From Gammaproteobacteria bacterium (GTDB lineage: Bacteria; Pseudomonadota; Gammaproteobacteria; Steroidobacterales; JBCCMA01), in NCBI GenBank assembly GCA_045107005.1, contig JBGCFP010000101.1:1374-65373 (forward strand): DNA of 64,000 bases, in the 5' to 3' direction. This document shows positions 45,401 through 64,000 of this stretch, one piece after another; within the stretch, counting starts at the first letter, position 1, and each line of letters opens with the position of its first letter. The notes under the pieces are model-generated. The model searched no databases and was not told the DNA's origin. It worked only from the letters and a program-made list of their open reading frames with translations. A program made the translations under genes and the position numbers.

Positions 45401-46897
45401 GCGGCCGTCTTTCATCAGCAGCGACGTCGAGTGGTAGTTACGCGGAATGGAAATAGAATCCACGACGCGCCAAGTGTTGGATTGCGGACTGTAAATTTCC
45501 GCGGGGAAAATCGAACCGCCGTCGAAAAAGTTTTGACCCGATACGTTGCCGCCAATCACCAGTACCTCGCCGTTCGGCAACGTGACCGAGTTACTCAATG
45601 CACGCGGATAGTTCATCGGCGCACCTTGCGTAATCACCGGCGCCGGGCCGTTTAGGTCCGCCAGAAAGACGTTGGTTACCAAGGTTCTTTCGGTTTCGCG
45701 CGGGTCCATCCCGCCAATCAGCATAACTTTGCCCACGTCGTAGGTGACCACGTTGCCCCATTTTCTCGCGCGCGAGCCCGTCGGCTGTCCAAAGTCCTGA
45801 TTGTTGGCGCCGCTCACCGGATCAAAACTGTGCAATGTGGGCGTGGGCCCGCCGTGGAAAACACGACCGTTTGGCTGCACCGCAAGCTGGGGGAACCACT
45901 CCAAACCACCAATGCTGTTGTGCTCGTCGAGCAGCGTTTGCATGGTCGCGTTCGGCGTGCGGATCCAGCGGTTCTCCAGTGGATCGTATTTCTCCGAGCG
46001 ATTGCCGGCCGACTTGCCGAACGTCGCGAAGATCTGGTTGTTGGGCAGCGTTACACTGGTGGCGTACCAACGCAGGTCAAACATATTGGGTAGCGCCGAC
46101 CAATTCATGTTGGTCGGGTTAAAGGTGCTGGTGCGGCGATCGTCCGGGTTACCGCCCGACGCGACGATGCGACCGTCTTCCAGTGTCGCGACGCCGGCAC
46201 AAAACATGTCGTGGAAATTATTGTCGATGCTGGAGAACGTCTGGGTCACAGGATCAAAAATCGACGAATGGGTAAATTCACGATTGGCCGGGAAAGAGTC
46301 CGTCTCGGTGGAGGACCAGGTCAGCACGCGACCGTCGGGCAGGTTCGCAGCGGAGATCGCGATGTGCGGCCACTGAATAACCGGACCCCACTGGCCAAAT
46401 TCGGCGATGTCCGCCACTTCCAATTCACCGTTGGCCGGAATCGGCAAGAAGCCGCCACTGGATGCGCGGTAAAAGACGTCCAGCACTTCGCCGCCGCCTT
46501 TCTCAAAAAACTCGACGCGCAAATCGTAGACGCCGGGATTCAGAAATACCTGGCCGCTGACGGTGACTGGCGCGTGCAAGCCATCGTTGTCCACTACCAT
46601 CGCACCGTCAATATACAAGCGCGAGCCGTCGTCCGATGTCGTTTGAAACGCGTAGGTGTCGGCCGCGGAGACGGTGATTTGATTGGTGAACACCAAACCA
46701 AACGTCTCAACCTGAGTGGTCACGCCAAGCGTAATAACGTCGCTGGTCCCACTGGCTATCGGAGACAGCGTCGTGAAATCAGGCAGCTGATTGAAGTCAC
46801 CATCGTAGACGGAGTAATTGAATTGTGAAAACGCAAACGGGGCGTAAGCGAAGACACCGAAGAGAACCAGAGCTTTGAGCTCGCTCAATTTATTCAT
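39458..46897 (-). CDS. Giant secreted multidomain protein: PA14, galactose-oxidase-like copper radical oxidase, TSP3 arrays, PA14, MAM/LamG-like, beta-propeller, di-haem CCP/MauG-like, PA14, MAM/LamG-like
   Basis: ATG at 46897 follows AAGGG and gives signal peptide MNKLSELKALVLFGVFAYAPFAFSQ (2479 aa). Oxidase motifs are HDMFCAG, RNYHSTSLLMKDGRVLSAGGG and NHLDGQIFTPPYLY. Haem motifs are CASCH (41927-41941) and CGTCH (41531-41545). Three PA14-like blocks and many DxDxDGxGDxxDxFPNDP repeats are present. Confidence 0.9.
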   Translation of the reverse strand: MNKLSELKALVLFGVFAYAPFAFSQFNYSVYDGDFNQLPDFTTLSPIASGTSDVITLGVTTQVETFGLVFTNQITVSAADTYAFQTTSDDGSRLYIDGAMVVDNDGLHAPVTVSGQVFLNPGVYDLRVEFFEKGGGEVLDVFYRASSGGFLPIPANGELEVADIAEFGQWGPVIQWPHIAISAANLPDGRVLTWSSTETDSFPANREFTHSSIFDPVTQTFSSIDNNFHDMFCAGVATLEDGRIVASGGNPDDRRTSTFNPTNMNWSALPNMFDLRWYATSVTLPNNQIFATFGKSAGNRSEKYDPLENRWIRTPNATMQTLLDEHNSIGGLEWFPQLAVQPNGRVFHGGPTPTLHSFDPVSGANNQDFGQPTGSRARKWGNVVTYDVGKVMLIGGMDPRETERTLVTNVFLADLNGPAPVITQGAPMNYPRALSNSVTLPNGEVLVIGGNVSGQNFFDGGSIFPAEIYSPQSNTWRVVDSISIPRNYHSTSLLMKDGRVLSAGGGACGTGCAANHLDGQIFTPPYLYNDDGSPASRPALSNVPPIIGTGGTFTVAAGADTVRFSMVRLSATTHHVNTDQRYLPVSSVNNGDGTFTLTLNANPNVLIAGNYWLFAVNDNDTPSIGQTIQVQRSFTDSDGDGYADSEDAFPNDPTEWRDSDSDGVGDNADVFPNDPNETTDSDGDGVGDNGDAFPNDPAESADTDGDGVGDNADAFPNDPTETMDSDGDGLGDNADPYPNDPTRPILDSDGDGVPDRFDLFPNDPNRSAGVWREVFTGIAGNAVTDLTNSANYPDNPATVEQMTSFEGPTDVLDNYGTRMRGILFAPETGSYTFWVAGDDNVQLNLSSNFNPANKTEIASVPGWSGSREWTKFPEQSSATIQLIAGEAYYLEALHKEGAGGDNLAVAWQRPSDNTITVIGGQFFDTDSDGDGVPDSLDAFPNDPTETMDSDGDGIGDNADPTPFGNVLFADDFETNSGWTRNPNGTDTATTGLWEAANAEETGNGLVMQTADAASGAQYLVTEGSAGAGLGTNDIDNGTTSIRSPSINLPSSTPIDLSFQYYLAHLTNATTDDFLRVQVVGSSTVTVLEVLGNTTDAGAAWQQANVNLDSFAGQSIYLLVSAADAAGGSLIEAGIDDIKLTAADAVDSDGDGVPDNLDAFPNDPTETTDTDGDGVGDNADVFPNDPTESADSDGDGVGDNADAFPNDPTETVDTDGDGVGDNSDAFPNDPTETLDSDGDGYGDNSDSTPTGGSNIVALPTAPRNSTTLLVENSSGSDRIWNVNPDNDSVSVSSADGSLIQQIDVGEKPWSLAKAPSATRIFVANKADANITIINTATLAVESTVALPYGSQPHGLVFNNSGSEYFVVLEALATVQKRDAATQALISEIQLSGMPRHIAMTYDDAKLLVSNFITPPVPGEATVDINFAGGGAQVFSVDPATMSLSNTIALTHDNRPTSESQGPGLPNYLNAPVIAFDNTFAFVPSKKDNIDSGLLRGNFGMTFDQTVRSNVSRIELATETEGTLRIDFDNASLGTGAAITGGNRYLLVALETSRELGVFDILNGFEVMRLPTGRAPQGVALSSDGSKAYVHNFMDRSVSRFDLAEMIETDLPATNVLGTTDVVSNEALSAPVFLGKQLFYDAEDDRLAHDNYMSCASCHNDGGEDGRVWDMTSFGEGLRNTIELNGRAATGHGFLHWSANFDELQDFEGQIRTLSAGSGLMSDADFFAGTRNEPLGDTKAGFSSDLDALAAYLASLNEFDESPYRNQDGSLTTAGAAGKLVFEASGCGTCHGGTRFTNSQDATTLTDIGTINASSGERLGGPLTGIDVPTLRDVWKTAPYLHDGSAPTLAVAVTAHDGNTVSGADLTNLVAYLEQIGREEGVAFVDSDGDGVPDEDDAFPNDPTETADSDGDGVGDNADVFPNDPTETTDTDGDGVGDNGDAFPNDPTESVDSDGDGVGNNADAFPNDPTETTDTDGDGVGDNGDAFPNDPNESADTDGDGVGDNADAFPSDPAETTDTDGDGVGDNGDAFPNDPTETVDSDSDGVGDNADAFPNDPTETADSDGDGIGDNADPYPNDPDRPNQDSDGDGVADNIDLFPNDPTRSAGIWRDVFTGIGGVAVADLTNSANFPDNPALLEELASFEGPINVLDNYGSRLRGIFFAPESGSYTFWVSGDDNVQLNLSTDSSAANKVEIASVPGWTTSRLWTKYPQQQSASIELVAGEAYYLEVLHKEAGGGDNVAVAWQRPSNGTLTVIGTEYFAQDSDGDGVADHLDAFPNDPTETLDSDGDGIGDNSDPTPFGDQLFIDDFEGASLWMRNPNGTDSATTGLWEQANAQATTISGVAYQLDNAVSGTNYLVTGGNAGSSAGVDDIDNGVTSMRSPEIVLPAGASSELSFSYYFAHYDNGTTDDFLRVKVVGSNTQTVFEELGASNIDGGAWQEAVVDLSSFAGQTVYILVEAADAGVPSLIEAGIDDVRVTAQ
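40596..41248 (-). repeat. Tandem 66-nt (22-codon) thrombospondin type-3-like repeat array, ~10 units
   Basis: The coding repeat is DSDGDGVGDNADAFPNDPTETT, iterated. The antisense frames give artefactual S/P-rich ORFs. Confidence 0.85.
43158..43466 (-). repeat. Tandem 66-nt TSP3-like repeat array, ~5 units
   Basis: Same unit as the array at 40596-41248. Confidence 0.85.
44603..44992 (-). repeat. Tandem 66-nt TSP3-like repeat array, ~6 units
   Basis: Same unit as the array at 40596-41248. Confidence 0.85.
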
Positions 46898-47181
46898 TGT
46901 TGACCCTTGGCAGTCGGACAAATGAGTGCTGTTATGAATCTGACGCTTCTACAGCAACGGCTTGTTGGTGGCCCACGATCTTGGTCGCGGTGCTTTATAT
47001 AAGTATAGACGCAGCAATATTCGTGCCGGGGCCGGAGTTGTTCGCTGATTGTCTAAATGAAACAAAGGCTTAAGCGATATGGCATAACCTCTTCATTTGA
47101 CTAATTTCGAAGTGGGCAACCGGCGAATCCGCAACTGGAAGAATTTTCGACGGCTTGGTGCAGCGCGCGAGGTATCAATGT

Positions 47182-49518: not shown

Positions 49519-50448
49519 TCAATCACACGCGTTCGTCAACGCACTTGGGCCGGGCGACTGAAAGAAGCGGCTGCGGAGTTCGCCCAAATCCGCGACATTG
49601 ACAATTCGATCGTTATTGAAGTCTGCATTGAGGTCATTCGAAAAAAACACCTTCCGTAGCAGGCCCAGGTCTGCAGCGTTCGTCACACAGTCGTTATTCA
49701 GATCGGTGTCACAGGCGTTTCCGAAACCATCACTATCGGCATCCCGTTGGCTCGTATTTGACGTGACAACGCAATTGTCCTCGCTGTCGAGGAAACCGTC
49801 GCCATCAGCATCGTTGTCCGGCGAAAATATATCCGCTTCATTGAAGAAAAAATACTGGCTGCCGGTAAAGTTGCCTGAATATTCTGTAGCCGTGGTCTGC
49901 CAGTGCGTATTGTTGAAAACCCAAGAACCGATATCGTTATTTGCTTCCCAATAGAGCAGTGATCCAAGGCCTGACAGCTCGGGCACCGAAAAATCCAGTG
50001 CAATAAGGGCCAGGATGTTATTCGAACCGGGAATAAAACCTGAAAACGCCTCGACCAGAATGCCGGAGACCAGCAACTGAGGTTCATCAATGCCTAACTC
50101 AGGAATCGTACCGCGTAGAAAAAACGCGCCGCCGATTGCTTCACCATCGTTATTCACGATGGCATTCAGCGTCGCCTGGGTCGTCACTTCGATCGACACA
50201 ACGACGCCACCAATAGACAGCCCTGTCCCATTGCAGTCACCAGTCTGAGACCACAGAAACGTAGACGCGTTGTATGAGCCGTCCGACGAGCAGCTCGACG
50301 AGCCACCTATATTACCGGTTGAAGTGCCGCGCTGAACACTTGTGAGCGGCATGAAGCCAGAGGCCCCATCTGCCATTGCCATGTTGGCGACAAGAGTAAA
50401 TACCGACACTCCAATTAGTGCGGTTAATGCGAACACGGATCTCAACAT
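49519..50448 (-). CDS. Secreted protein with a C-terminal TSP3 + dockerin-like cassette
   Basis: ATG at 50448 follows GAAGGA and gives signal peptide MLRSVFALTALIGVSVFTLVANMAMA. The cassette is at 49522-49818. I do not recognise the N-terminal domain. Confidence 0.85.
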   Translation of the reverse strand: MLRSVFALTALIGVSVFTLVANMAMADGASGFMPLTSVQRGTSTGNIGGSSSCSSDGSYNASTFLWSQTGDCNGTGLSIGGVVVSIEVTTQATLNAIVNNDGEAIGGAFFLRGTIPELGIDEPQLLVSGILVEAFSGFIPGSNNILALIALDFSVPELSGLGSLLYWEANNDIGSWVFNNTHWQTTATEYSGNFTGSQYFFFNEADIFSPDNDADGDGFLDSEDNCVVTSNTSQRDADSDGFGNACDTDLNNDCVTNAADLGLLRKVFFSNDLNADFNNDRIVNVADLGELRSRFFQSPGPSALTNACD

Positions 50449-50670
50449 TGAATGTTCCTTCAAGATTGCTTGGCAAGGTCTGAGCAGAGAACAGGACGCA
50501 TAAACACCCTACCCGAAGTAGTGCAAACAAGGGATAGATCCGAACAACGAGCGGAAGTTGCGATTCGTCGGACGGGCGTTTGGTAGGCGAGGCCAGGTGA
50601 GTGTAGTGGTCAACACGCGAAACGTTGCAAAGCTGGAGTCAGTTTAAGGCATCAAAGCAATCAGGGTGAA

Positions 50671-51081: not shown

Positions 51082-52086
51082 CTACGGCGCTGCAGAACAA
51101 CCGTTGGGTTGGCCGCTCGGTCCTGGCGGTTGCAAGAAGCGCGTGCGCAGGATACCAAGATCAGCCACATTGACCGATCCGTCACTGTTAAAGTCGGCAG
51201 CCGGGTCGGCGCTGAAAAACACGCTGCGGAAGAGCCCCAGGTCCACCACGTTGGTCACGCAGTCATTGTTCAGGTCGGTATCGCACAAGTTGCCGATGCC
51301 GTCGGCGTCGCCGTCAATCTGGTCAGCATTGGCGACCAGCGTGCAGTTGTCACTAACGTCCGCCACACCGTCATTGTCGGTATCCACGTCGCCGGTCAGG
51401 CCGTAGCGCAGCATGCCGTCAGCGGATAACGTCCACGCGCGCTCGAAGTCCCGCTCGGAGAACTCGCCACCGGAGAACTGATCAAACTCGCGCGCGTAAA
51501 ACGCCAGGGTTTCGCCAACGGTTGCACCGGTCGAAAAGAGTACGACCGAGCCCAGCGATTCGTTAAATGTAGCCGGATTGGTGTAAAACCCGTTGCTGGC
51601 GGGCAGCTCGATCGTGCTCGACAGATTTTCCGCCGGATCCGTGGTGCCAGCCGCCATGTCGTGCGCGGCGGTGAACATCGAAACGGCTGAGTGAATCGCC
51701 TGCAGACTCGTCAGCGGGTCGGTGGGAAAATCAATCGTCGGGCTATTGCTCGTCGTGAACACCGTCAAGAAGCCGCCAAACGAAAAGTTCTCCACGCCGA
51801 CAACCGAGTAGCGCAGATCGCCGGCAGCACTGTCGCCGAACGTGTTGAGGTACAGATCGTCCGGTGAAAATTCGAAGTCGAAATTGCTGAACTGGAAAGC
51901 ATTGAGCGTAATACCGAGATCTCTTGTGTAGGTGATGCCGCGCGACGAATCGTGCACGGTCAGGAACATCTCCGCTGCCGGATCGTCAATGTCCCCCTCG
52001 GTAACGATGGCCGCGGAGGCGCCAGCCGACAGGGCGAGGGTGGTGAGCAGGGTACCGGTCTGCAGCAGGGCTTTGGTTTTTTTCAT
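51082..52086 (-). CDS. Secreted protein with a C-terminal TSP3 + dockerin-like cassette
   Basis: 334 aa with signal peptide MKKTKALLQTGTLLTTLALSAGASAA. The cassette is at 51085-51390. I do not recognise the N-terminal domain. Confidence 0.85.
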   Translation of the reverse strand: MKKTKALLQTGTLLTTLALSAGASAAIVTEGDIDDPAAEMFLTVHDSSRGITYTRDLGITLNAFQFSNFDFEFSPDDLYLNTFGDSAAGDLRYSVVGVENFSFGGFLTVFTTSNSPTIDFPTDPLTSLQAIHSAVSMFTAAHDMAAGTTDPAENLSSTIELPASNGFYTNPATFNESLGSVVLFSTGATVGETLAFYAREFDQFSGGEFSERDFERAWTLSADGMLRYGLTGDVDTDNDGVADVSDNCTLVANADQIDGDADGIGNLCDTDLNNDCVTNVVDLGLFRSVFFSADPAADFNSDGSVNVADLGILRTRFLQPPGPSGQPNGCSAAP

Positions 52087-53485: not shown

Positions 53486-56068
53486 ATGACGATCACAAGG
53501 CACACAAAAATAGCGTGCGCGGCAGTGCTGGTCATGGTCGCAATCGCGTGGTATCTGCAACCTCAAAACAGTGCGCCCGCACCGGCGTATGCCGGGCCCG
53601 ATCTGGCGCCCGGCGATTGGGTGCTCGCGCGTCGGTTTGCAGGCAGTGAACTGAGCCAGGCACGTCTGCGTACGATTGACAGCGACTATTTGGCCTTGCG
53701 CGCCACCACGGCCCAGCGCGCGCCGCGCGCGGCCGCTTCTGCGTGGTCGTTTCTCGGACCCGTGAACATCGGTGGCCGCGTTCTCGACATTGCCGTCGAT
53801 CCGCAACTGCCCGATACCCTTTTCATCGCCAGCGCCAGCGGCGGGGTTTGGAAAAGCACCGACGCCGGCGACACATTTGACTCCGCGTGGCCCGCTGCGA
53901 ATGCGCAGGCCATTGGCGCGCTGGCGATCACCAGCGGCGGGCTGCTCTACGCCGGTACCGGGGAATCGGGGCCCGGCGGCGGCAGCCCCACGTTTGGCAA
54001 TCAGGGCGTCTTTCGATCGGCGGATCGTGGCGCCAGCTGGACCAACATTGGCTTGACCTTAAGCGACCGGATCAGTCGCGTTGTAATTGATCCCAACAAC
54101 GAACAACGACTTTTTGTGGCGGCGACCGGTCCGGTCTACGCCCCGGGTGGCGAACGCGGCGTGTTTCGCAGCGTTGACGGTGGCGACAGTTGGCAACTGG
54201 TGCTGCCCGGTGCCAACGCCACAACCGGGGCATCCGACGTTTACATCGATCCTGTGAACCCGGATCGCGTATACGCGGTGCTGTGGGATCATTTGCGTCA
54301 ACCGTCGCTGCGCCGCTACGGCGGCGTTGGCTCGGGCCTGTTCCGTAGCCTCGACGGCGGCGATACGTGGACGCGACTGGCGAGTGGATTGCCTGGCGCC
54401 GCGCCAGACGTGGGTCGTATTGCACTGGGTGTCGCTCCAACGAATCCCGACAGGCTGTACGCCACCTACTCGGACGATCTGGGCTTCTTCACCACTTTCT
54501 ATGTGTCCGTTAATGGCGGCGACACCTGGGTCGCGAGGCCGTTCAGCCAGGACCTCGCCGATTCACAGGGCCGCGGTGCGTACTGGTACGCAAGGCTATG
54601 GATTGACCCGATGGACGAGACACGTGTATTCAGTGCGGGCGTCCCGTTGCTGCGATCAAGCGATGCGGGAATGAACTGGACAGTCGATTTCAGCGTCCAT
54701 GTCGATCATCACGCGATGGCGTGGGACAGCAAAACCCCAGGCCGGGTTTATCTTGGCAACGACGGTGGCGTGTATCGCTCTGAAAACAACGGCACAGATG
54801 GCTGGGTGTTTGGCAGCGTGCAGCCTTTCACGCAGTTCTACGCCATGGACGTGAGCGAGAGCAATCCGCAGCGCGTGCTGGGCGGCACTCAGGACAATCG
54901 CTGCGTGCGTTCCTACTCGCAGAGCAATCCCGATGACTGGAACCAATGGGGGTTTTGCGGCGATGGCCTGGAGCAGCTCGTCAATCCGTTGGATGACAAC
55001 GTGATTTACGGTTGCAGTCAGTACGGCAATTGCTTGCGCTCGATCAACGGGGGCGAGACCGTGTTTCAGCTCGGTTCGACAGCGCAGCTAAGACGCAATT
55101 GGCAGACGCCATTGGCCTTCGATCCCAGCGATCCAAGTGTAATGTACTACGCCGGGGAGCGGGTCAATCGGTCGGTGGATGGCGGCGGCAGCTGGGCAAC
55201 CATTAGCTCGGACCTGACCGGCGGCGATCCGTTTCCGACACCGATTGACTACTATCCGTTCGGCACCATCACCACGCTGGCAGCCGCAAAGAGCGATCCG
55301 AATACCATCTATGTCGGCACCGACGACTCGCGCCTATGGGTGACGCAGGACCTGGGCCAAAGCTGGACGCAATCCACCGGTAGCAACCTGCCGCAGCGCT
55401 GGGTCACCAAAGTGCTGGTCGACCCTGTCGATGCCAGCGTGGCCTACGCCGCGTATTCGGGTTTTCGCAACGGTGACGACACGCCGTACATCTTTAAGAC
55501 CATCGACGCCGGCTTTACCTGGACTGACATCACCGGCGATTTGCCCGGCGCGCCGATCAATTCACTTGCACTCACCCAGTCGGGCACGCTGATTGCTGGC
55601 AGTGATATTGGCGTGTTCGCGACCATCGATGGCGGCACCAGCTGGAACGTCGTCGGGCAAGACTTGCCACAGGTACCGGTGTTCGACCTGCGCATGCACG
55701 AGCCCTCTGCGACCTTGTTCGCTGCTACTTTCGGCCGCGGCATTTGGAGCGTGCCACTCGTCGCAGAAGACAGCGACGCCGACGGTGTGACGAACGCCAT
55801 CGACAACTGCAGCGAGTTCGCCAATCCCGCACAGGTCGATAGCGACGGCGACAACTACGGCAATGGTTGCGACGCAGATTTCAACAACGACTGCCAGGTA
55901 AATATTATTGATCTTGGCGAGTTTCGCCAAGGGTTCTTCGGCCCGGATCTGGAATTCGACCTGACCGGCGACGGGGCGGTAAACGCTGCTGATCTGGGAC
56001 GTCTGCGGTTACTTTTTTTCCAACCCGTCGGTCCAAGCGGACTGAGCAAAGCGTGTGTTCCTGACTAG
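53486..56068 (+). CDS. Secreted BNR/Asp-box beta-propeller (sortilin-Vps10-like) protein with a C-terminal TSP3 + dockerin-like cassette
   Basis: 860 aa with an N-terminal signal/anchor after AGGAG. At least nine Asp-boxes are present (SADRGASW, SVDGGDSW, SLDGGDTW, SVNGGDTW, SSDAGMNW, SVDGGGSW, TQDLGQSW, TIDAGFTW, TIDGGTSW). The cassette is at 55766-56065. Confidence 0.9.
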   Translation: MTITRHTKIACAAVLVMVAIAWYLQPQNSAPAPAYAGPDLAPGDWVLARRFAGSELSQARLRTIDSDYLALRATTAQRAPRAAASAWSFLGPVNIGGRVLDIAVDPQLPDTLFIASASGGVWKSTDAGDTFDSAWPAANAQAIGALAITSGGLLYAGTGESGPGGGSPTFGNQGVFRSADRGASWTNIGLTLSDRISRVVIDPNNEQRLFVAATGPVYAPGGERGVFRSVDGGDSWQLVLPGANATTGASDVYIDPVNPDRVYAVLWDHLRQPSLRRYGGVGSGLFRSLDGGDTWTRLASGLPGAAPDVGRIALGVAPTNPDRLYATYSDDLGFFTTFYVSVNGGDTWVARPFSQDLADSQGRGAYWYARLWIDPMDETRVFSAGVPLLRSSDAGMNWTVDFSVHVDHHAMAWDSKTPGRVYLGNDGGVYRSENNGTDGWVFGSVQPFTQFYAMDVSESNPQRVLGGTQDNRCVRSYSQSNPDDWNQWGFCGDGLEQLVNPLDDNVIYGCSQYGNCLRSINGGETVFQLGSTAQLRRNWQTPLAFDPSDPSVMYYAGERVNRSVDGGGSWATISSDLTGGDPFPTPIDYYPFGTITTLAAAKSDPNTIYVGTDDSRLWVTQDLGQSWTQSTGSNLPQRWVTKVLVDPVDASVAYAAYSGFRNGDDTPYIFKTIDAGFTWTDITGDLPGAPINSLALTQSGTLIAGSDIGVFATIDGGTSWNVVGQDLPQVPVFDLRMHEPSATLFAATFGRGIWSVPLVAEDSDADGVTNAIDNCSEFANPAQVDSDGDNYGNGCDADFNNDCQVNIIDLGEFRQGFFGPDLEFDLTGDGAVNAADLGRLRLLFFQPVGPSGLSKACVPD

Positions 56069-56386
56069 ATCGGCCTCTGCAAGGGCGCTGTCTCGCGTAG
56101 AGAGCCTCACCGTGAAGGTGGCCGACGCAAAGAACAACATTCTTGCTGATATTGCCTTCAACACTTAAACAGGTTGCAGGCGACCGTTACTACGGGCGAG
56201 ATGAAGGCACCAAAAAATGTGGCCGATATGCGCCATCCTATGCGGCCCCCAAACCAACCAGGAAGCACGAAGACCGACCCGAACAGGAATAGCGCCTGCT
56301 GGCCGCGATCCTCGATGGGCGGATGCATCCCCATGGGCAGTGCCATGACCGTGATCGAGCCGTAAACGCCCCCGAAGACGGTGTCG

Positions 56387-56602
56387 TCAATTTGGCGTGT
56401 CGCTGCTGCCATCTGGCCATTTCGCGTCATAGTGCGACCCATCGCAAAAAGGCTTGTTGTTCGACAACCCACAGCGGCAGAGCGAATACTTGGCGCGGGA
56501 TGCGCCCTCACCGTTGAACTCCGCATTGAGGGTGACGTTGGTGACGTGGAAGGGCCCGTCCTTTTCAACCTCGATGCCCAGAAAATAGGAAGCATAAACG
56601 TC
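56387..56602 (-). CDS. CDGSH iron-sulfur domain protein (no canonical start codon in frame)
   Basis: A 71-codon open frame reads ...GIEVEKDGPFHVTNVTLNAEFNGEGASRAKYSLCRCGLSNNKPFCDGSHYDAKW..., with a complete C-x-C-x2-S-x3-P-x-C-D-G-S-H signature. It is hidden in an alternative frame of the 202-aa ORF 56158..56766. The nearest ATG is out of frame. Confidence 0.5.
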   Translation of the reverse strand, partial: DVYASYFLGIEVEKDGPFHVTNVTLNAEFNGEGASRAKYSLCRCGLSNNKPFCDGSHYDAKWPDGSSDTPN

Positions 56603-56820
56603 CTACACGAAGTATCGCAAACGATCGCTTGATCTGAACAAAGAGTGGAAGTTGCGATTCGGATTTCTGGCGCACCGAGGTTTAGCTCGGGATCAAACGA
56701 CGCATGGCCGATCCAGCCGCCGACTAGCCCACCAACAATGACGCTAATCAACCCTGCCGCTTCCATAGTCTTTCCTCGACGTGTAATTCGTTGGCAATGA
56801 ACAGTGAAAGACAGCGCGTG

Positions 56821-59427
56821 CTACGGCCACGCACCTAGATTTTTCAAATCTTCAATTTCAATTAGCGAGTCCGGTACGCCGTCGCCATTCTTATCGTTAT
56901 CGCATTCATCGCCAACCCCGTCGCCATCTTGATCCTGATGCCCGCTCATACTGTAGATATCCGGACATTTGTCGCACGCGTCGCCACGCAGGTCGCCATC
57001 CTTATTGAACTGAAACGTGTTGGGTTGAGAAACGCAGTTGTCGCTGAGGTCCGGCACGCCATCGCCATCTGAATCGGCTCGATGTCTGACAAGCAACGCC
57101 TCGATGTCGAGATTTTCGCGATGGGAAAACGTGATGTTGTGGCGTCCAGCCTCAAGCACCCGGGTTCTGCCCAGCGATGTTGCGGAGGTCGCCCAGCTCC
57201 AAACCAGTGGCGTGTTGCCGGCCATCGACCACGGTAATGGCACCCCACCGTCTACGGTCATGAAAACAGAATCACAGCAAGGACCGTCAGTGCGTGAAAG
57301 CAATCGAAATTCGTAGACACCCGTACGTACAATGTCGATGTCAAAGTCCAGCCTGTCGGCCGCATCGTCCAACGTCACATACTGATCTTCAATTGGAATC
57401 GTGGTCCCGGGCTGCGTGTGGGCGATGACGTCGACCGACAGCGAGCGACGCGCCTCGGTAGCCAATATCAGCATCTCGCAATCATCACCCTGACAATCGG
57501 CGCGCAGACGAGAGCGCTCGGCTCTGCGGATAGGCAGCTGATGTGTCGTGAGAATGCGCGCTTTGTCACAGTCGTGATTCCAACCCAGGCAGTGGTGGTT
57601 GAGGGTCGCAAGGACTCGCTGATAGTCCAGAGCGCCAATATCGCCATCAATCAAAAAGCGAGAATATCGCCATGACACGAAATCGAAGAATTTGACCATG
57701 TCATGGTGATCGCGCATTTTGCGAATGGCTGAGGTAAACGCGATGTTTGCCAAGCGCACAGCATCCGGATTTTCTTCAATGATCGTTTGGGACTGCGAAC
57801 ACCAGACGCCCGACTGACTACGATAGCCCGTACGGCATTCATTCCATGCAAGCTCCCAGTAAATCGAGGCCAGCACGTCACCGCATGCGTGGGGCGAAGA
57901 CGCAGAATCCGGTGAGCAGACCCGCGAATCACGATCGTAAACCAAATGGCCAAGACCAAAGGTGTCGTGCGTACTGGGCGTCGCGATTCCCCCTGAATGA
58001 TGCCCATACTCAAGGTGCGTGCCATCGTCGTAATTCAGTTCGCTCATCTCGTCAAAGGGACGATTGGCATTTTCCTGAAATCTGAACAGGGCATAGCGCA
58101 GTAGGTTGTGGTCAGCAAAGCCCTCGTCGACCGCCCGTCCGCGCAAGCTGGTGGGTGTACGGTCATACATGAAATGAATGATGTGGCCAAATTCGTGCGC
58201 CATAGAGCTTAGTGAAAAAGCACTGCCCGTGATGGTCGGAAGCAAAATTTTGTACTCAGTCATCCCTGACTTGGCACATGCAGAAGCCAAACCGGGACAC
58301 AGTCCTGAGGGAGCGACAATCACCCGCAGATTCTCCGGGTCGTAAGATCGCCAGGGATAACGCGCGTCGTACGCTGCGTTGGGATGACGTGAAAATTGCG
58401 AGAGGTCGTGGAGCCAGAAATAGGCATTCACGGCATCGTCTGCGATGCCCTCGGCCGATGGCGCAAATCGAAACACCGAGTCGCTGTCGCAATCCCGTCG
58501 CAGTCGAAACGTCGTTGAGCCGTCAGGCCGATACTTGCCGTCCACTTTGATGCCGACTTTGGGCTCCCCCTGATCATGGCTCGATCCGTGATCCAAAGAG
58601 AACAGGCAGTCATCTGCGTTCACGCGGCGCGTTACCTGCACACCGCTTTGTCTCGATCCACTGCGCGCGCTCAACCGATTGTCATAGGCGGCATGCACAA
58701 CATTTTGGTCAACCAATGCGTGATTTTCGTAGGTCAGATCATCGGTCGCTACAATTTGCCGCAACCGTTCATTGATCAGATGCCGAATATGATCCTCATC
58801 GCTGGGCGCCACGCGGAGCATCAATGCGCCCTCAGTGGGATCAAAATATCGTTTATCGACAACGACCGTGTGCCCGAGTCGTTTCTCTACCCATTGCAGC
58901 GCTTCGCGCTCGCTGGAAAACGATGTGATGTCGTCCGCAGCGCTCACCTCCGTTGCGGTTGCCGCACGCCCGATCACTTCCAACACGTTGCCCTGCGCGT
59001 CAAACGTCAGCTCGAGCTCTGTGCCAAGAACCGGGTGACCGCGAACCTCCTGCACCGTCAGAATCTCTCGATAGCCATCCTCATCCGTCACGTCCCGAAC
59101 CAGCTTTCTTGGCAGCAACCGCGATGCATCGTCGACACGCCAAAGCTCGGCAGCGAGAAATTGCGCCACGCAGTCGGCGAGCGCGACGGCGTCGCGGGGC
59201 AGGTCGCCATTGACGGCACAACCGGTACCGATGGCACCCGCGGCGAGATACGTCGCATTGCCGTTTTCGTCGGTGGCGGTATAAAAAACCTCGGGACGCT
59301 CAGCCTCAAGCCGGGTTAGCAGCGCGTCGCCGACGCTATCGGGCCGCGATGCGGACTGGTGGGCGCAACTCGTGCAAAGCACTACGGTCAGCGAGATGAT
59401 CTTGATCAGGTTTCTCGTAAACATCAT
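56821..59427 (-). CDS. Secreted thermolysin-like (gluzincin) zinc metalloprotease with C-terminal TSP3 repeats
   Basis: 868 aa with signal/lipoprotein-like MMFTRNLIKIISLTVVLCTSC. HEFGH lies at 58183-58197, and VDEGFADH 20 residues later supplies the third-ligand Glu. The N-terminal pro-region looks PepSY/FTP-like. The C-terminus has DSDGDGVPDLSDNC...QDQDGDGVGDECD. Confidence 0.85.
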   Translation of the reverse strand: MMFTRNLIKIISLTVVLCTSCAHQSASRPDSVGDALLTRLEAERPEVFYTATDENGNATYLAAGAIGTGCAVNGDLPRDAVALADCVAQFLAAELWRVDDASRLLPRKLVRDVTDEDGYREILTVQEVRGHPVLGTELELTFDAQGNVLEVIGRAATATEVSAADDITSFSSEREALQWVEKRLGHTVVVDKRYFDPTEGALMLRVAPSDEDHIRHLINERLRQIVATDDLTYENHALVDQNVVHAAYDNRLSARSGSRQSGVQVTRRVNADDCLFSLDHGSSHDQGEPKVGIKVDGKYRPDGSTTFRLRRDCDSDSVFRFAPSAEGIADDAVNAYFWLHDLSQFSRHPNAAYDARYPWRSYDPENLRVIVAPSGLCPGLASACAKSGMTEYKILLPTITGSAFSLSSMAHEFGHIIHFMYDRTPTSLRGRAVDEGFADHNLLRYALFRFQENANRPFDEMSELNYDDGTHLEYGHHSGGIATPSTHDTFGLGHLVYDRDSRVCSPDSASSPHACGDVLASIYWELAWNECRTGYRSQSGVWCSQSQTIIEENPDAVRLANIAFTSAIRKMRDHHDMVKFFDFVSWRYSRFLIDGDIGALDYQRVLATLNHHCLGWNHDCDKARILTTHQLPIRRAERSRLRADCQGDDCEMLILATEARRSLSVDVIAHTQPGTTIPIEDQYVTLDDAADRLDFDIDIVRTGVYEFRLLSRTDGPCCDSVFMTVDGGVPLPWSMAGNTPLVWSWATSATSLGRTRVLEAGRHNITFSHRENLDIEALLVRHRADSDGDGVPDLSDNCVSQPNTFQFNKDGDLRGDACDKCPDIYSMSGHQDQDGDGVGDECDNDKNGDGVPDSLIEIEDLKNLGAWP

Positions 59428-62400
59428 GATGACTCCGATTCAAAAGGACCAATGCTTGCCGACGGTTTGTCCTCCAGATAACCCATCACCCATGTTCTGT
59501 CCGACGGATCCACCGCTCCATTGTTTTGCGAGAAATCGGTTGCAAAGACACTGACCAGTTTTCGGAATGCCAATGCTTCCGTTGCCTGCTGCCAGTTTTC
59601 GAGCGCCGCGCTCCACGATTCGCCACCGACCGTCATCGTGGTGTAGTGAATGCGATACGACAGCAAGAGCGAATCGGTTCCCTCCGAATAGGAGTAAGTC
59701 CTCGTAAATTTATCCTCTGGGACGACGATCGTGCTTAAGATCAAATCCCGCAGCCCGGGTGAGTCGGAGAAGCCACTTATCTCGACGCGCGGAGTAATGC
59801 TGGTTCGAAGATCAAAAGAACCAGTGCGGCTTGAGCCATCGTGCAGCCGAACTGCACGTTGGCCCACCCATTTACCTTTGGCATTGCGGGAAAACGATGT
59901 TTCGCCGTCGTTTTCTCGAATGAACTGCGGAATGCTGCTGGAGTATGGCGTCATGCCATCCGGGATCACGGTCAGCGAAGACTCGAGCAAATCTGCCGGG
60001 GTGTTCTGCGAATCCGTGTCAACGTAGAGGAACAAGGCACCGCCTGATTTTTTGGCCTGCGGTGGCTTGACCGACCTTTTGGGCGTCGTTGGCTTTTTGG
60101 CCGCGCCCTCGCCGCTGCTACTTCCGACCGATTCGGACGAGCTCTTGGTACTTTTGTCGGTACTCCCGGCGCTGCTCGAGGTGGCCGGTTTTTGCGCGCT
60201 GGTACTCGCGGCGCTGCTCTTGGCGGCTTTGCTTGTGCCAAGGCTATCGAGGGTCTTGCCCGCCAACGTCGCTTTTTGCTCGGCGGTCAGATCATCGTTT
60301 TCAAATATTTGCTTGAGCAAATCTGACTGCCGCTTGTTCCCGCCCATTGCGTTCACCATGTTTTGCGTGCCCTCAGACAACGAAGTCATGTACTTGGCCA
60401 GCTCCTCTCCCCCTGACATATCACGGAACACATCTGAGGTACCCAGCACTTTGAGGGCGCTTGCCATCGCAATGGGGTCGGGCGCCGCCGGCGGTGCGGC
60501 CATCGATATGATGCTGTTGGGCAAAGCCGTCGGCGTGAGCCCCTGGGCCGCCTGAAAGCGCGAGTTGGTGGACACTGGCGCGATGTCGGGCGCATCGCCT
60601 GGAATTGGCGATTTTTGAAAATCCCAGAACCGTGTGTCGTCGATTTTCTCGCACGATGAACAGTGTCCGAGCTTGCCGTCTGCAAAGACGCCTTTGGTGG
60701 GTACGGTGATCAGATCTTCTACGGAGATGCCGGACGCTTCGAGACGTTCGTCATCATCGGCAACATCCAGCGCCTCACGTGCGTGCCGTTCATTGACCAG
60801 CGGGAATGCGAAAGTCATACCGTCACGTAGCAGGATGCGATTTTCTATCAGGTCAGTCAGCGGCCTGCCGTCGAGTCTCGCCGCTTTCAAAAGTTCGGAC
60901 CGTTGGAGCGGATCTGCACCGGCATAGGCCGCCGCCTGGTAGTACTGACTGAACGCGGCAATGTGCTGCATCAGGCGGTCTCGGGCCGCGACATCCCCTT
61001 CGGACACGAAATCCGTGAGGATCGGGCGAATATCCTGAGGCAAAGAATCCGGCGGGTTGACAGGCACGTTGAGTGACGAGCGACCGCTAAATTTGTGGTT
61101 CACAAGCTTGTCGACCAGTGTTGCCGTGCTTCCGGTTGGCGTGGTCGCCGTCACCTGAAGTCGCTCCAGTAGCCATTCACCTGCGTCGTCCAGAGGACTA
61201 GGCCGCACCCGAAAGCCCACGCGGACCATCGCGATGTCTTGCCATTTCACTGCGGACTCAGGCACCACGACAAACGCATCAATCGAATGCTTACGCCAGT
61301 TGTCGTGACTCGGCGTATCCAGAACGCTCGTGTCACCACCGGCATCCGGATGGATCTGTCGACAGACAATCGTCTGTCCGTCTTTTTTGACGATAGTGAA
61401 ATTGACGCCACGCGCGTGGCTGTCGTTGCCGGTATGAAACAACACGGTGAGTTGCTCGAACGACAAACCAGCTTCCCCCGGCTGCGCTGCACTCGTATCA
61501 AAGCGATCCTGTTCTTCTTTGAGTCGAAGCCGCGCAGCGGCAACACGGTTGAGCGCCTCAAAGCCGGCCAGATAGCGCGAGTCTCGCAACGCAAATTCAA
61601 CGGCAGCACGATGGGCGAGCACCGCGGTCTCCCTGGCCAGCGCGTCCGGATTTGAAAAATCCGGCATGTCCTGCGGCTCAAATTCTACGAACAGTGCCGG
61701 ACGGCGCCCGACAAAGGACGTCAACGTGCGGTAGTGCCGAAGGACCTCATAATAAAGAATGGTCAGCGTATGGCAGTGATTGTGATTGGCCACGCTGCGC
61801 GTCTCATAGCGCCCATCCTCGGACTGGGTAATCTGCGTCACCACCGTAGAGTTGAGCTCGCGCACTGCTGTGGACGCCTGGTGAAACCCGTCGCTCAGAT
61901 CCTGCGTCGTTTCTGCGGCGATTCTGCGAAATCCTTTGCTCGATTTTTTTGCACCACCAAAGCCGAGCGACGAGCCGACGACGCCCGCGCCAATCGGAGC
62001 GGCAACGCTGGCGGCGATCCCGCCCATCATCGAATCGCCACTTTGCTTTTCGCGTATGGAAGCGCGAATGACCTCACCGACCACCCGGTCACGACCTTGC
62101 TCATTGACTAACTCATCACGCGCTTGGGTTGACTCGCTGCGGGATGCCCCATCGGAACGCTTGTAGTCGATAATCGCGAGCTTTACTTTTTCGCCTGGGG
62201 CCAGGGGCAAGCTGTACAGGATGCGACCCAGAGAATGTCCCACGGGAAACCACTGCGTTCGATAGTCCATCACATAGCCAAATCGAACCGCCGCGACTTC
62301 TTTGCTTGGTCGTCTCGGTGTCGATCTACTGACTTGTACAGCTTCGTGAAACGCAAATTGATGCGTCGACAAATCGCCCGGATACAGGTCTTCGCATGCA

Positions 62401-63080
62401 CCATCCCCGATCAACCTCGATGGTGAGATGGCGAACGAGCCCGGCGAATAGCGCCAGTCCTGAATGTCGGGGTTTTGCATCGACGGCAGAGACGGATCAT
62501 CGCCACGCCCTTCCAGCCAGCTCTCCTCAACATGCAGCCGGAGCATGATGTTGCTCGGCGACACGTCACCTTTGTCCAACGCATCGATGGCGAACTGATC
62601 GTCCGAAAACGGCACGACAAGATAGTTCGCCGTCAGGTCCACATCATCAACCGGTATAGAGTCCGGGATCTCACGTGCCAGCGACATAAGAAACCCAATG
62701 TCCTGCAGCGGGCGCAGGTCGAACGACGCATAGCCAACGTGGTCTGTTGCCAGTGACCCGAGCGGAAAGGACACCGTCTTGCGCACTTGAGCAGTCTGAT
62801 CGCCAGGCTCGCGTGTAACGAGGGCCAGTTTCACCAACCCGAAGACGGGAAGACGCGCCACAATATCGTCCGTCTCATACGCTTTGGAAAAAACGGCCAG
62901 CTTCTTGAACTGCATTCTTTGACGCAGTGCAATGACGATCTTCTCTTGATGAGACAGTTCGACATCAATACCGGGTGCGTTATCGAAAAACGGATCGTCC
63001 ATCATATTTTCGGCGGTGCGGATGGAATCGCGCACGCCCAACGGTGCTGTGGCGAAAATACGAGTATGTGAATGCGGCAT
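59424..63080 (-). CDS. Large (1218 aa) orphan protein of unknown function
   Basis: ATG at 63080 is preceded by AAAGGGA at 9 nt. No signal peptide is present. Conspicuous blocks are GHSLGRILYSLPLAPGEKVKLAIIDY, a Gly-rich hydrophobic stretch MMGGIAASVAAPIGAGVVGSSLGFGG, ANHNHCHTLTILYYEVLRHY, and a Ser/Ala/Lys-rich linker at about 60040-60245. Its stop overlaps the protease start in ATGA. Confidence 0.85.
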   Translation of the reverse strand: MPHSHTRIFATAPLGVRDSIRTAENMMDDPFFDNAPGIDVELSHQEKIVIALRQRMQFKKLAVFSKAYETDDIVARLPVFGLVKLALVTREPGDQTAQVRKTVSFPLGSLATDHVGYASFDLRPLQDIGFLMSLAREIPDSIPVDDVDLTANYLVVPFSDDQFAIDALDKGDVSPSNIMLRLHVEESWLEGRGDDPSLPSMQNPDIQDWRYSPGSFAISPSRLIGDGACEDLYPGDLSTHQFAFHEAVQVSRSTPRRPSKEVAAVRFGYVMDYRTQWFPVGHSLGRILYSLPLAPGEKVKLAIIDYKRSDGASRSESTQARDELVNEQGRDRVVGEVIRASIREKQSGDSMMGGIAASVAAPIGAGVVGSSLGFGGAKKSSKGFRRIAAETTQDLSDGFHQASTAVRELNSTVVTQITQSEDGRYETRSVANHNHCHTLTILYYEVLRHYRTLTSFVGRRPALFVEFEPQDMPDFSNPDALARETAVLAHRAAVEFALRDSRYLAGFEALNRVAAARLRLKEEQDRFDTSAAQPGEAGLSFEQLTVLFHTGNDSHARGVNFTIVKKDGQTIVCRQIHPDAGGDTSVLDTPSHDNWRKHSIDAFVVVPESAVKWQDIAMVRVGFRVRPSPLDDAGEWLLERLQVTATTPTGSTATLVDKLVNHKFSGRSSLNVPVNPPDSLPQDIRPILTDFVSEGDVAARDRLMQHIAAFSQYYQAAAYAGADPLQRSELLKAARLDGRPLTDLIENRILLRDGMTFAFPLVNERHAREALDVADDDERLEASGISVEDLITVPTKGVFADGKLGHCSSCEKIDDTRFWDFQKSPIPGDAPDIAPVSTNSRFQAAQGLTPTALPNSIISMAAPPAAPDPIAMASALKVLGTSDVFRDMSGGEELAKYMTSLSEGTQNMVNAMGGNKRQSDLLKQIFENDDLTAEQKATLAGKTLDSLGTSKAAKSSAASTSAQKPATSSSAGSTDKSTKSSSESVGSSSGEGAAKKPTTPKRSVKPPQAKKSGGALFLYVDTDSQNTPADLLESSLTVIPDGMTPYSSSIPQFIRENDGETSFSRNAKGKWVGQRAVRLHDGSSRTGSFDLRTSITPRVEISGFSDSPGLRDLILSTIVVPEDKFTRTYSYSEGTDSLLLSYRIHYTTMTVGGESWSAALENWQQATEALAFRKLVSVFATDFSQNNGAVDPSDRTWVMGYLEDKPSASIGPFESESS

Positions 63081-63308
63081 GTTCTGAGATCCCTTTGCGT
63101 TGTGTCCAACCCAACAATAGGACCCGGCGATGCGAACAAACAGGCCATTTGAACGACTTTCGTGCCGCTTTCGTCGAACTTTCGTTGCCCTCTGGTTCTT
63201 TGCGCCACCTTGCATTCGCCGCAGATGTCGCCACTACTTAATTGAGAGCCGTTTCAACAGGGTCTACACTTAAAAACAGTCACGTCTGGCCACCACTTAA
63301 ACACGTCG

Positions 63309-64000
63309 ATGGTGCAAATTTTGAATCGGTCCACGCCGCACGGAAAGCGTCTGATCTTTGCCGACGCAACGCTTGATCTCGAACGAAGACGCCTTACCCG
63401 GGACGGTACAGACTCACCGCTACGTCCAAAAGCCATGGACTTACTTATCTTCCTGGCCAGTCGGCCCGGAAAGCTGGCAAGCAAAGACGATATTTTGAAA
63501 GCCGTCTGGCGACAGACAGTCGTCACCCCCGATTCGATCACACAATGCGTTATCGAAATCCGTCGTGCGCTGGGTGATGACGATCATGTCATTGTGCGCA
63601 CCGTCCCCACACAGGGCTACCTGCTGGATGTGCCGGTACGCGAGGTGGACGGGCAGAAAGACAAAGTCGATGCAGCCGATGATGGTGGCTCCAAGCCCGA
63701 AGCGCGGCCACGATTTGCCTATGTATTGTCGGCGGCGGTATTCGGTGCGTGCGCGCTAGTGCTGATGGTATTGCTGGGTACGTGGTCAAAAACATCCGCA
63801 CCCTTGAGCGCCGAAGTCATGCAAGCGTCGCCAAGGGCTGCCGGGCTGGCTGTCTTGCCGTTTGAGGACTTGAGTCAAGACGGCGACTACACCTATTTTG
63901 CGGACGGTCTGGCTCACGAAGTCATCCACAAGTTGTCCAGTGATCCCAAGCTGCGCGTCATCGCGAGCAACTCGTCGTTTACGTTTCGTGATCGGCGCCC
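63309..64000 (+). CDS. CadC/OmpR-type winged-helix membrane regulator with a TolB-N-like periplasmic domain (3' partial)
   Basis: This ORF is not in the supplied track because it has no stop inside the window. The ATG is at 63309. LTRDGTDSPLRPKAMDLLIFLASRPGKLASKDDILKAVWRQTVVTPDSITQCVIEIRRALGDDDHVIVRTVPTQGYLL is a Trans_reg_C domain. It is followed by a TM segment FAYVLSAAVFGACALVLMVLLG and then LAVLPFEDLSQDGDYTYFADGLAHEVIHKL. Confidence 0.8.
   Translation, partial: MVQILNRSTPHGKRLIFADATLDLERRRLTRDGTDSPLRPKAMDLLIFLASRPGKLASKDDILKAVWRQTVVTPDSITQCVIEIRRALGDDDHVIVRTVPTQGYLLDVPVREVDGQKDKVDAADDGGSKPEARPRFAYVLSAAVFGACALVLMVLLGTWSKTSAPLSAEVMQASPRAAGLAVLPFEDLSQDGDYTYFADGLAHEVIHKLSSDPKLRVIASNSSFTFRDRR

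Follow-up and report, generated by a model that had tools for sequence, protein, structure and literature searches.

A 1218-residue protein whose gene overlaps that of a rare HExxH protease belongs to a widespread family with polymorphic C-terminal domains

The 64,000-nucleotide (nt) stretch of contig JBGCFP010000101.1 analysed here (the window; Gammaproteobacteria bacterium, assembly GCA_045107005.1) carries on its reverse strand two overlapping genes, one encoding a large protein of 1218 amino acids (aa) and the other an 868-aa protein with the zinc-protease motif HExxH. A sequence-only reading had taken the two for an uncharacterised two-gene module, in which an orphan protein is processed or escorted by a dedicated protease. 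The shared ATGA that inspired this proposal is present in the sequence (GAG TCA TCA TGA TG), a GGAG sits 5 nt upstream of the protease ATG, and the arrangement recurs identically on two independent Logan contigs (L085 and L086). The 1218-aa and 868-aa products are called alike by NCBI and in two Logan assemblies. At its longest the large open reading frame (ORF) spans 59424..63215 (1263 aa), and the ATG at 63080, which gives 1218 aa, is the start picked by two independent gene callers. Based on the ATGA overlap and the upstream GGAG, the two genes are probably co-transcribed in this genome and their translation is possibly coupled. Where co-oriented bacterial genes overlap, as in operons, the 4-nt ATGA is the most frequent form, and its presence here is not unusual. 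Promoter and terminator scans around the pair gave results no better than chance. GC content and codon usage neither set either gene apart from the host nor mark either as foreign, and the GC content at third codon positions (GC3) of the two genes is alike and slightly low. The analysis described below shows that the large protein is a typical member, apart from its orphan tail, of a large family of stand-alone proteins, each some 1200 aa long, that is scattered across the phylogeny and horizontally mobile. Its association with the protease appears accidental or at most private to this genome.

How much of an orphan is the large protein? Among 5.8 billion proteins, with 8000 candidates scored, it has at least 396 homologue clusters at E ≤ 1e-3 and E-values down to 1e-264, which leaves the term orphan applicable to just its last ~214 residues. 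The top homologues are 1050–1570 aa long with query coverage of 66–84%, and most of those listed are named ‘hypothetical protein’. Relatives are found in 339 of about 185,600 species genomes (one genome per species), distributed over Actinomycetota, Bacillota, Cyanobacteria, Chloroflexota, Bacteroidota, Acidobacteriota, Planctomycetota and Pseudomonadota as well as a Methanotrichaceae metagenome-assembled genome (MAG). Among these taxa are Nocardia, Streptomyces, Arthrobacter, Paenibacillus, Neobacillus, Nostocales, Chitinophagaceae and Planctomycetota (Brocadia), together with many Alpha-, Beta- and Gammaproteobacteria, and further relatives reside on haloarchaeal plasmids. The nearest listed relative of the window copy, at 47% identity, comes from a Caldilineaceae MAG, and such a neighbour for a gammaproteobacterial protein suggests horizontal transfer. 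The large protein has no match in Pfam, NCBIfam, PADLOC or PHROGs, seven diverse relatives have none in NCBIfam, sequence and profile searches against the PDB gave nothing significant, and no description of the family was found in the literature. Since no curated family recognises the protein, its earlier description as uncharacterised is justified. The same is true of the claimed lack of a signal peptide, because the N-terminus is signal-like in none of 120 family members.

Several family members are associated with mobile DNA. They are found on plasmids of Polaromonas and Nostoc, integrases and a transposase adjoin some of their loci, one close homologue is embedded in a conjugative region (TraG/TrwC/SSB) that also encodes type I restriction-modification, and PIN, Fic and helix-turn-helix (HTH) genes lie near a member on a haloarchaeal plasmid. 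One relative is located at the edge of an integrative element. A phage origin was considered and rejected: INPHARED yielded one match and IMG/VR one distant match beside an integrase, and phages all but lack the family. The sole INPHARED match (L088; MT835996.1, ‘UNVERIFIED: Bacteriophage sp.’, from a human faecal virome) is a high-GC contig whose other genes encode a sodium:solute symporter and a PIG-L deacetylase, and has the appearance of bacterial DNA entered under phage.

A fundamental question for the proposed module is whether the pairing is conserved. Searching the protease by tblastn against 84 homologue loci, including as much as 10 kb of flanking DNA per locus, gave no match, and all-against-all clustering of 1386 ORFs from these loci (the genome loci analysed being the best 80 of at least 339) revealed no neighbour family shared beyond local synteny across 79 loci. 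The immediate neighbours of the homologues vary in strand, distance and size. An HExxH motif occurs in 10 of the 296 ORFs next to the homologues and in 18 of 943 ORFs elsewhere, mostly as chance matches, so that ORFs with this motif show no meaningful enrichment beside the homologues, and none of them is coupled. In the reciprocal comparison, no relative of the large protein was detected at any of six loci with protease relatives (L087 and L092-L096; tblastn, E ≤ 0.01, up to 4.2 kb upstream), and the 169 nt that precede the closest protease homologue (P0122, 61% identity) contain no gene call. The idea of a two-gene module with a dedicated protease had been made to depend on such linkage in other genomes; with 0 of 84 and 0 of 6 loci linked, it is not supported. 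What survives of the pair as a unit is the physical overlap, which is real, in a pairing confined to this genome.

A narrower version of the idea is that the large protein is an effector or pro-toxin matured by the co-translated protease in this genome, for example through a cut in its linker outside the cell. Thermolysin-like proteases do activate some pore-forming protoxins, as Vibrio HA/protease does with VCC and Clostridium perfringens lambda-protease with epsilon-protoxin. The ATGA overlap with its upstream GGAG, the long protease-accessible linker and the similar, slightly low GC3 of both genes would suit such a role, and a private pairing is conceivable given that the C-terminal domain of the window copy and the protease are both near-unique. 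However, the loci of homologues and of protease relatives show no trace of this partnership, whether as the protease itself, as an enrichment of HExxH ORFs or as a relative of the large protein. Moreover, the TSP3 repeats of the protease are shared with at least seven other exoproteins of the window, and an export signal is apparent on the protease and absent from the large protein, such that the two would not normally meet. For these reasons maturation by the protease is considered improbable.

The family is built on one plan, in which a conserved core of ~860 aa is followed by a disordered, partly cationic linker and a polymorphic C-terminal domain (Table 1). In the alignment of 120 homologues, residues ~60–915 are conserved and the tail is variable. 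The distinctive blocks picked out by the sequence-only reading are all in place at residues 281–306 (GHSLG...IIDY), 351–376 (MMGG...GFGG) and 431–450 (ANHNHCH...RHY), as is the Ser/Ala/Lys linker at about residues 946–1014. The first and third blocks (GHSLG..PLAPGE and ANHNHCH..YYEVLRH) are the most conserved parts of the family. An AlphaFold2 (AF2) model of the core, computed from 77 sequences, has a mean predicted local distance difference test (pLDDT) score of 77.6, with 398 residues at ≥90. Its N-terminal beta-sandwich is followed by the short conserved segment SMQNPxIxDWRxSPGSF and then by a long-hairpin module, the most conserved part of the family, in which four strands of ~30 residues (262–293, 298–326, 403–431 and 439–467; 208–239, 244–272, 349–377 and 385–413 in core numbering) form two hairpins whose turns hold the invariant PLAPGE and N-x-N-H-x-H. 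This module is found again in distant relatives with other architectures.

Table 1 Features of the gene pair and of related genes in the window; residue numbers are those of the encoded protein.
Feature	Position in window	Strand	Description
Large protein	59427..63080	-	1218 aa; ORF; identical product in NCBI and Logan calls
N-terminal beta-sandwich	62511..62903	-	residues ~60-190; AF2 pLDDT about 90-96; conserved motif PLGxLxTDHVGYxSFDL
Long-hairpin module	61680..62297	-	residues ~262-467; AF2 strands and invariant columns
Insert between strands 2 and 3	61866..62105	-	residues ~326-405; AF2 pLDDT <50
Eight-stranded beta-sandwich	61062..61454	-	residues ~543-673; AF2 strands at core 489-619; probable PLAT/LH2-like
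Pro-rich segment	60336..60725	-	residues ~786-915; column conservation 0.6-0.87; AF2 pLDDT <50
Short conserved helix and disordered Ser/Ala/Gly/Lys/Pro linker	60039..60335	-	low occupancy and conservation
C-terminal domain	59427..60038	-	residues ~1015-1218; polymorphic position of the family; window version orphan
ATGA stop/start overlap	59424-59427	-	TGA of the large gene shares letters with ATG of the protease gene
HExxH protein (protease)	56824..59427	-	868 aa; ORF (56821..59427)
Protease parts			FTP-like propeptide 108-154; HEFGH 411-415; EGFADHN 435-441; beta-rich ~690-780; TSP3 784-856
Divergent OmpR-type winged-helix and TPR regulator, 5' part	63309..64000	+	641 aa, extends beyond the window
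Other TSP3 proteins	24107-25327, 30449-31168, 33916-34947, 39458-46921, 49519-50463, 51082-52086, 53486-56068		

Between the second and third strands lies an insert of 75–87 aa (range over the 120 homologues), in which a charged flank precedes a hydrophobic core rich in Gly, Ala and Ser (MMGGIAASVAAPIGAGVVGSSLGFGG; median KD19 of the core 1.16). The second flank, after the core, is alpha-amphipathic, with an alpha-periodicity of z = 3.1. The model also contains a helical hairpin after the module and a helical domain after the second sandwich. At one end of the long sheet it would place a helix, the Gly/Ala-rich hydrophobic segment and a second helix, an arrangement compatible with membrane insertion. 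A Foldseek search of the PDB with the core model gave a PLAT/LH2 match at a probability of 1.00 over about 140 columns (1olp_D, alpha-toxin; 1lpa_B; 3vf1_A), the matching structures being the Clostridium alpha-toxin C-domain, pancreatic lipases and lipoxygenases. We infer that this match belongs to the eight-stranded sandwich and not to the N-terminal one; by sequence, Pfam PLAT has no match in the large protein. The PLAT/LH2 domains of alpha-toxin, pancreatic lipase and lipoxygenase bind membranes or lipids. Unlike those enzymes, the large protein has no phospholipase, lipase or lipoxygenase catalytic domain. A viral fold search (BFVD) returned generic beta-sandwich matches only, at the level of single domains.

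The core closes with the Pro-rich segment, whose motif GHCxxxExIDxTRFWDWQxSPIP...AAPDPxxxAxALxVLGTxxxFRDMSG includes many invariant residues in a mostly non-globular context. This segment accompanies the hairpin module in distant relatives and may serve as an oligomerisation arm. The linker that follows ends in a cationic Pro-rich stretch, KKPTTPKRSVKPPQAKK, and homologues keep the same succession of helix, low-complexity linker and cationic stretch.

What follows the linker differs from one member to the next. The C-domains of the family are about 200–450 aa long; the last ~215 residues of 115 homologues fall into 33 BLAST clusters, and addition of the genome loci brings this to 39 clusters in 187 tails. 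Identical tail types occur across different phyla, and a single type spans Acidobacteriota, Kofleriaceae, a Methanotrichaceae archaeon, Caballeronia, Neobacillus and Dactylosporangium. The C-domain of the window copy stands by itself: an exhaustive phmmer search with residues 1005–1218 against 1.84 billion representatives retrieved only the parent protein (E = 1e-135), and hhalign detected no relationship to 10 other C-domain clusters. A word-indexed homology search with the same domain (59427-60068) missed even the parent, and its negatives on short or unusual queries need care.

Matches to Pfam were obtained for 6 of 38 tail types, namely GH25 (E = 1e-39), Amidase_2, Amidase_6, Peptidase_M15_4, Peptidase_M48 and DUF922, and precomputed Pfam matches of the family also include PG_binding_1 and PF11579. 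By eye, further tails appear GH19-like (FYKFRGRGAIQ) or alpha/beta-hydrolase-like (GHSRG), and several tail types have transmembrane (TM)-like segments. Distant relatives keep just the hairpin module and the Pro-rich segment and combine them with DUF2272, Hedgehog-N/M15 or Peptidase_C70 tails, the DUF2272 tails belonging to relatives on Haladaptatus plasmids. Thus, the recognisable tails are most often peptidoglycan hydrolases. No nuclease, deaminase or ADP-ribosyltransferase was recognised among the family tails, and for this reason the identifiable repertoire appears to target the cell envelope. The earlier suggestion that the large protein is an effector gains from these polymorphic tails, several of them with cell-wall enzyme domains, and from the fold matches. 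One distant relative, a 1105-aa protein on the pXO-like plasmid JMTpXO of Bacillus tropicus (L090:6332-9649, NZ_CP115304.1), has a C-terminal domain that matches the Hedgehog N-terminal signalling domain (PF01085, E = 9e-52) and, weakly, Peptidase_M15_3, so that a LAS-type peptidase is apparently a swappable tail. Another, of at least 2184 aa and truncated by the end of its contig (L091:1-8023, IMGVR_UViG_3300014205_009237), has Peptidase_C70 (AvrRpt2-like) after the core. Its neighbours are genes for a tyrosine integrase and a cI-like HTH protein, which places it on the border of an integrative element.

This architecture invites comparison with polymorphic toxin systems, of which the Rhs/YD, CdiA, LXG and MuF types were reportedly described by Zhang, Aravind et al. 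in 2012. TANFOR proteins have also been counted among them (PMC7073777). Like polymorphic toxins, the family has a long conserved N-terminal region, a linker and C-terminal domains swapped among homologues and phyla; its tail repertoire of peptidoglycan hydrolases, peptidases and lipase-like and membrane-active domains resembles theirs; and it is associated with mobile elements. There are also differences. Classical polymorphic toxins have both a downstream immunity gene and orphan cassettes, whereas the family has neither. No linkage to type V, VI or VII secretion systems (T5SS, T6SS, T7SS), phage-head genes or any conserved neighbour was seen in the 79 loci, no trafficking or pre-toxin domain was recognised with Pfam or NCBIfam, the nuclease, deaminase and ADP-ribosyltransferase tails are missing, and neither Pfam nor NCBIfam contains the combination of folds seen in the core. 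Since the architecture agrees and the immunity genes, cassettes and trafficking or secretion linkage do not, we regard the family as a variant of the polymorphic-toxin concept that stands outside the named families.

A second group for comparison is formed by secreted peptidoglycan hydrolases and bacteriolysins such as zoocin A and Woldo (PMC12352652), which share with some members of the family the GH25, amidase, M15 and DUF2272 ends, with or without PG_binding_1. Archaea deploy peptidoglycan hydrolases, 68% of which lack a known signal peptide (PMC12352652), and the peptidoglycan-type tails of the archaeal family members fit this finding; the archaeal copies are plasmid-borne, a further likeness to the archaeal bacteriolysins. 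However, bacteriolysins are small two-domain proteins, whereas here the hydrolase is a minor, swappable appendage on an 860-aa core, and most tails of the family are non-enzymatic or unrecognised.

Taken together, we favour the view, at a probability of roughly 0.45, that the family represents an undescribed polymorphic antibacterial effector that targets the cell envelope and is independent of a linked secretion system. In this model the core would serve as the delivery module. Its beta-sandwiches, one of them PLAT-like, would bind a membrane or surface, the Pro-rich segment would drive self-assembly, and the Gly/Ala-rich insert at the end of the four-stranded sheet would enter the membrane. 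The C-terminal enzyme, attached through the flexible linker, would thereby gain access to the periplasm or cell wall. The producer might release the protein by lysis or by another route. The co-transcribed protease would be irrelevant or, more speculatively, might clip the linker after release.

A number of observations weigh against this model. First, how would the protein leave the cell? None of 120 members has a signal peptide and none of 79 loci reveals a conserved secretion-system neighbour. Second, ~85% of tail types, including the commonest beta-rich ones and that of the window copy, have no recognisable function, and instead of being toxins the unrecognised tails could function in binding or sensing. 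Third, loci that share a tail type across phyla have no common neighbours except for Nocardia synteny, from which it follows that there is no cognate immunity gene. Fourth, a tblastn search of the 187 C-domains against all flanks for orphan cassettes returned only split genes and one free-standing homologue. Fifth, the AF2 core is a single monomer model. Finally, the idea of a pore receives little encouragement: beta-amphipathic periodicity is absent from strands and insert (z -1.5 to 0.6), the Gly-rich segment is just moderately hydrophobic, and Foldseek matches to lysenin, aerolysin and epsilon-toxin in their pore states have probabilities of 0.08–0.63 at root-mean-square deviations of 14–41 Å.

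Flanks of the family loci hold no second copies. The free-standing homologue lies in Segetibacter sp. 3557_3, where a separate gene (L061:14444-15004, minus strand) contains the tail type of P0076, P0078 and P0094. Relative to the family gene it is 2 kb downstream and oppositely oriented, and it indicates that at least this domain circulates outside the family.

The weak pore-state matches raise the possibility of a membrane-damaging toxin, its core pore-forming or membrane-binding, directed at eukaryotes or predators such as amoebae, nematodes or fungi, with tails that act as receptor-binding or accessory domains. The core does resemble beta-pore toxins of the aerolysin and anthrax-PA type in its very long beta-hairpins, the insert between two sheet strands and the accessory beta-sandwiches. 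In contrast to the aerolysin family, it lacks an alternating amphipathic pattern and a signal peptide, is 3–4 times larger, and carries invariant His/Asn/Glu motifs in its hairpin turns; the ETX_MTX2/aerolysin Pfam family has no match in the large protein at E ≤ 0.1. An aerolysin-type amphipathic hairpin was rejected on the negative periodicity test, and because strands and insert have no beta-amphipathic signal we do not claim a transmembrane hairpin of this type. A toxin against eukaryotes would account for the PLAT/LH2-like domain, which is present in Clostridium alpha-toxin, for the absence of an immunity gene, which such a toxin would not need, for the enrichment of the family in soil and freshwater taxa, and for the prevalence of beta-rich tails whose function is unrecognised. 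The recognisable tails, on the other hand, are mostly enzymes specific to peptidoglycan, and together with the missing beta-amphipathic signature and the weakness of the fold matches to pore toxins they make this explanation a long shot.

Could the proteins instead act on their own producer? A cytoplasmic suicide or abortive-infection device would unite the roles of holin and endolysin in a single polypeptide, kept inactive until a signal, for instance an infecting phage, sets it off. The core would then enter the cell's own membrane, the wall-degrading tail would pass outward, and the cell would lyse, with an arms race that would diversify the polymorphic or unrecognised beta-rich tails. The lack of signal peptides in all 120 members is what would be expected of such a device, as is a stand-alone single gene with no immunity partner, and the combination of an internal hydrophobic segment with peptidoglycan hydrolase tails also agrees with it. 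The family is, moreover, sporadic and linked to mobile elements, with some loci near toxin-antitoxin, restriction-modification, NACHT, integrase or Fic genes. However, the 79 loci show no consistent defence-island context, the core has no recognised NTPase or sensor domain, and neither the large protein nor the protease matches PADLOC (PADLOC-DB of 2023, with newer systems outside it). In addition, archaeal members carry DUF2272 tails, which have no substrate in a haloarchaeon. A self-directed device is thus unlikely, and the archaeal DUF2272 tails, which lack a substrate in the producer, argue for outward antagonism against bacteria rather than self-lysis.

A few genomic contexts suggest that the large protein might belong, as a building block or as cargo, to a bigger particle or to a transfer apparatus, for which an encapsulin or a conjugative element would be candidates. 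In 4 of the 79 loci the gene lies 31–66 bp downstream of a family-1 encapsulin shell gene, one close homologue sits within the TraG/TrwC/SSB region mentioned above, and the conserved, unstructured Pro-rich segment suggests assembly contacts. The remaining 75 loci have no such neighbours, the window contains no encapsulin, no encapsulin targeting peptide was recognisable by eye, and the family is essentially absent from phage collections, which together render a particle component very improbable. Encapsulin cargo was rejected as a general explanation, given that just 4 of 79 loci have the shell gene and the window has none.

The four encapsulin loci (L023:120-5926, L026:8161-13920, L077:4246-10361 and L083:3287-6165; Linocin_M18, E about 1e-16) come from Methyloglobulus morosus, two Nitrosomonas species and an Anaerolineae MAG. 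Their family members are longer, at 1453–1565 aa, and possess a conserved N-terminal extension of ~200 aa of their own; the L083 copy is cut near the contig end. At three of these loci the family gene is followed by a conserved, helical ORF of ~120 aa. Shell gene and large protein may form an unreported encapsulin cassette.

A more far-reaching version of the favoured envelope-targeting model is that these proteins are self-delivering, secretion-system-independent effectors of both bacteria and archaea, which function without partner genes or an immunity protein. We consider this doubtful. Here the Pro-rich arms would assemble the core into a membrane-inserting machine, and the cationic linker would carry the interchangeable enzyme across either the outer membrane of the target or the cytoplasmic membrane of the producer. 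If the favoured model holds, the family would be a single-gene weapon or lysis device present in at least 339 species, among them Streptomyces, Nocardia, cyanobacteria, anammox bacteria and haloarchaea, with a library of at least 39 interchangeable tails and a mode of delivery that fits no known polymorphic-toxin route. It would then bear on how proteins without a signal get to the cell envelope, and it could help to explain archaeal attack on bacteria, a question opened recently (PMC12352652). Such proteins would also be a source of lytic enzymes and possibly a modular delivery scaffold. For annotation, the reading as an orphan with a dedicated protease is wrong, and the conserved core merits a family definition of its own.

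With its partner placed in a large family, the protease is the near-orphan of the pair. Only two full-length homologues were found among 5.8 billion proteins, one at 61% identity and the other at 32% by BLASTP (37% in the alignment), and a metagenome scan added five more loci. HEFGH and EGFAD are invariant in all three close family members, and the resulting zinc signature, HExxH-20-ExxxD, places the Glu 20 residues past the second His. Thermolysin has the same spacing, from H146 to E166. The protein may reasonably be called a thermolysin-like gluzincin at the level of its motifs. It resembles M4 proteases of clan MA(E) in zinc-motif spacing, an apparent secretion signal and a weak FTP match, and differs from them in its extreme rarity and in having no M4 profile match and no catalytic match in the PDB. 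The Pfam profiles Peptidase_M4 and M4_C match neither the protease (E ≤ 0.1) nor its homologues (E ≤ 1), and in the PDB only COMP and thrombospondin are hit, through the TSP3 repeats, with none for the catalytic region; membership of the M4 family is for these reasons not demonstrated. An AF2 model from three sequences has a mean pLDDT of 33. Of the features attributed to the protease beforehand, HEFGH...EGFAD and the TSP3 repeats (Pfam TSP_3, E = 3e-6, above the gathering score) stand firm, whereas the pro-domain amounts to an FTP match below the gathering score, at equivalent positions in three homologues (E = 8e-4, 1.4e-3 and 0.16), and the export signal is a judgement by eye of an N-terminal hydrophobic segment typical of Sec signals.

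The window encodes at least eight exoproteins with TSP3 repeats, the protease included, and the others have signal peptides. The repeats look like a lineage-specific exoprotein tag, and since at least seven other exoproteins of the window bear it, the protease is better understood as part of the host secretome than as a co-inherited partner of the large protein. The set includes a 2487-aa giant with ~25 repeats and an 860-aa Sortilin/BNR beta-propeller, and some members have a dockerin-like tail. Two protease relatives lie near genes of other kinds: the one at 32% identity (L087:871-1606) is ~500 bp downstream of a MazE/PIN toxin-antitoxin pair, and in L092 the gene upstream of the relative looks by eye like an IS21-type transposase. 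The rare protease family may itself be mobile.

Two further genes flank the pair. The divergently transcribed OmpR-type regulator matches Pfam Trans_reg_C (E = 8e-13) and TPR; its full 641 aa are encoded at L085:64-1989, and its window coordinates were obtained by mapping that contig. From its position alone it is a candidate regulator of the pair. On the other side, a 202-aa ORF (56158-56766, minus strand) begins 55 nt downstream of the protease gene on the same strand, with a start that is also called on a Logan contig. Its product has hydrophobic, Gly-rich N- and C-termini and belongs to no Pfam family, and the transcription unit may include this ORF as a third gene.

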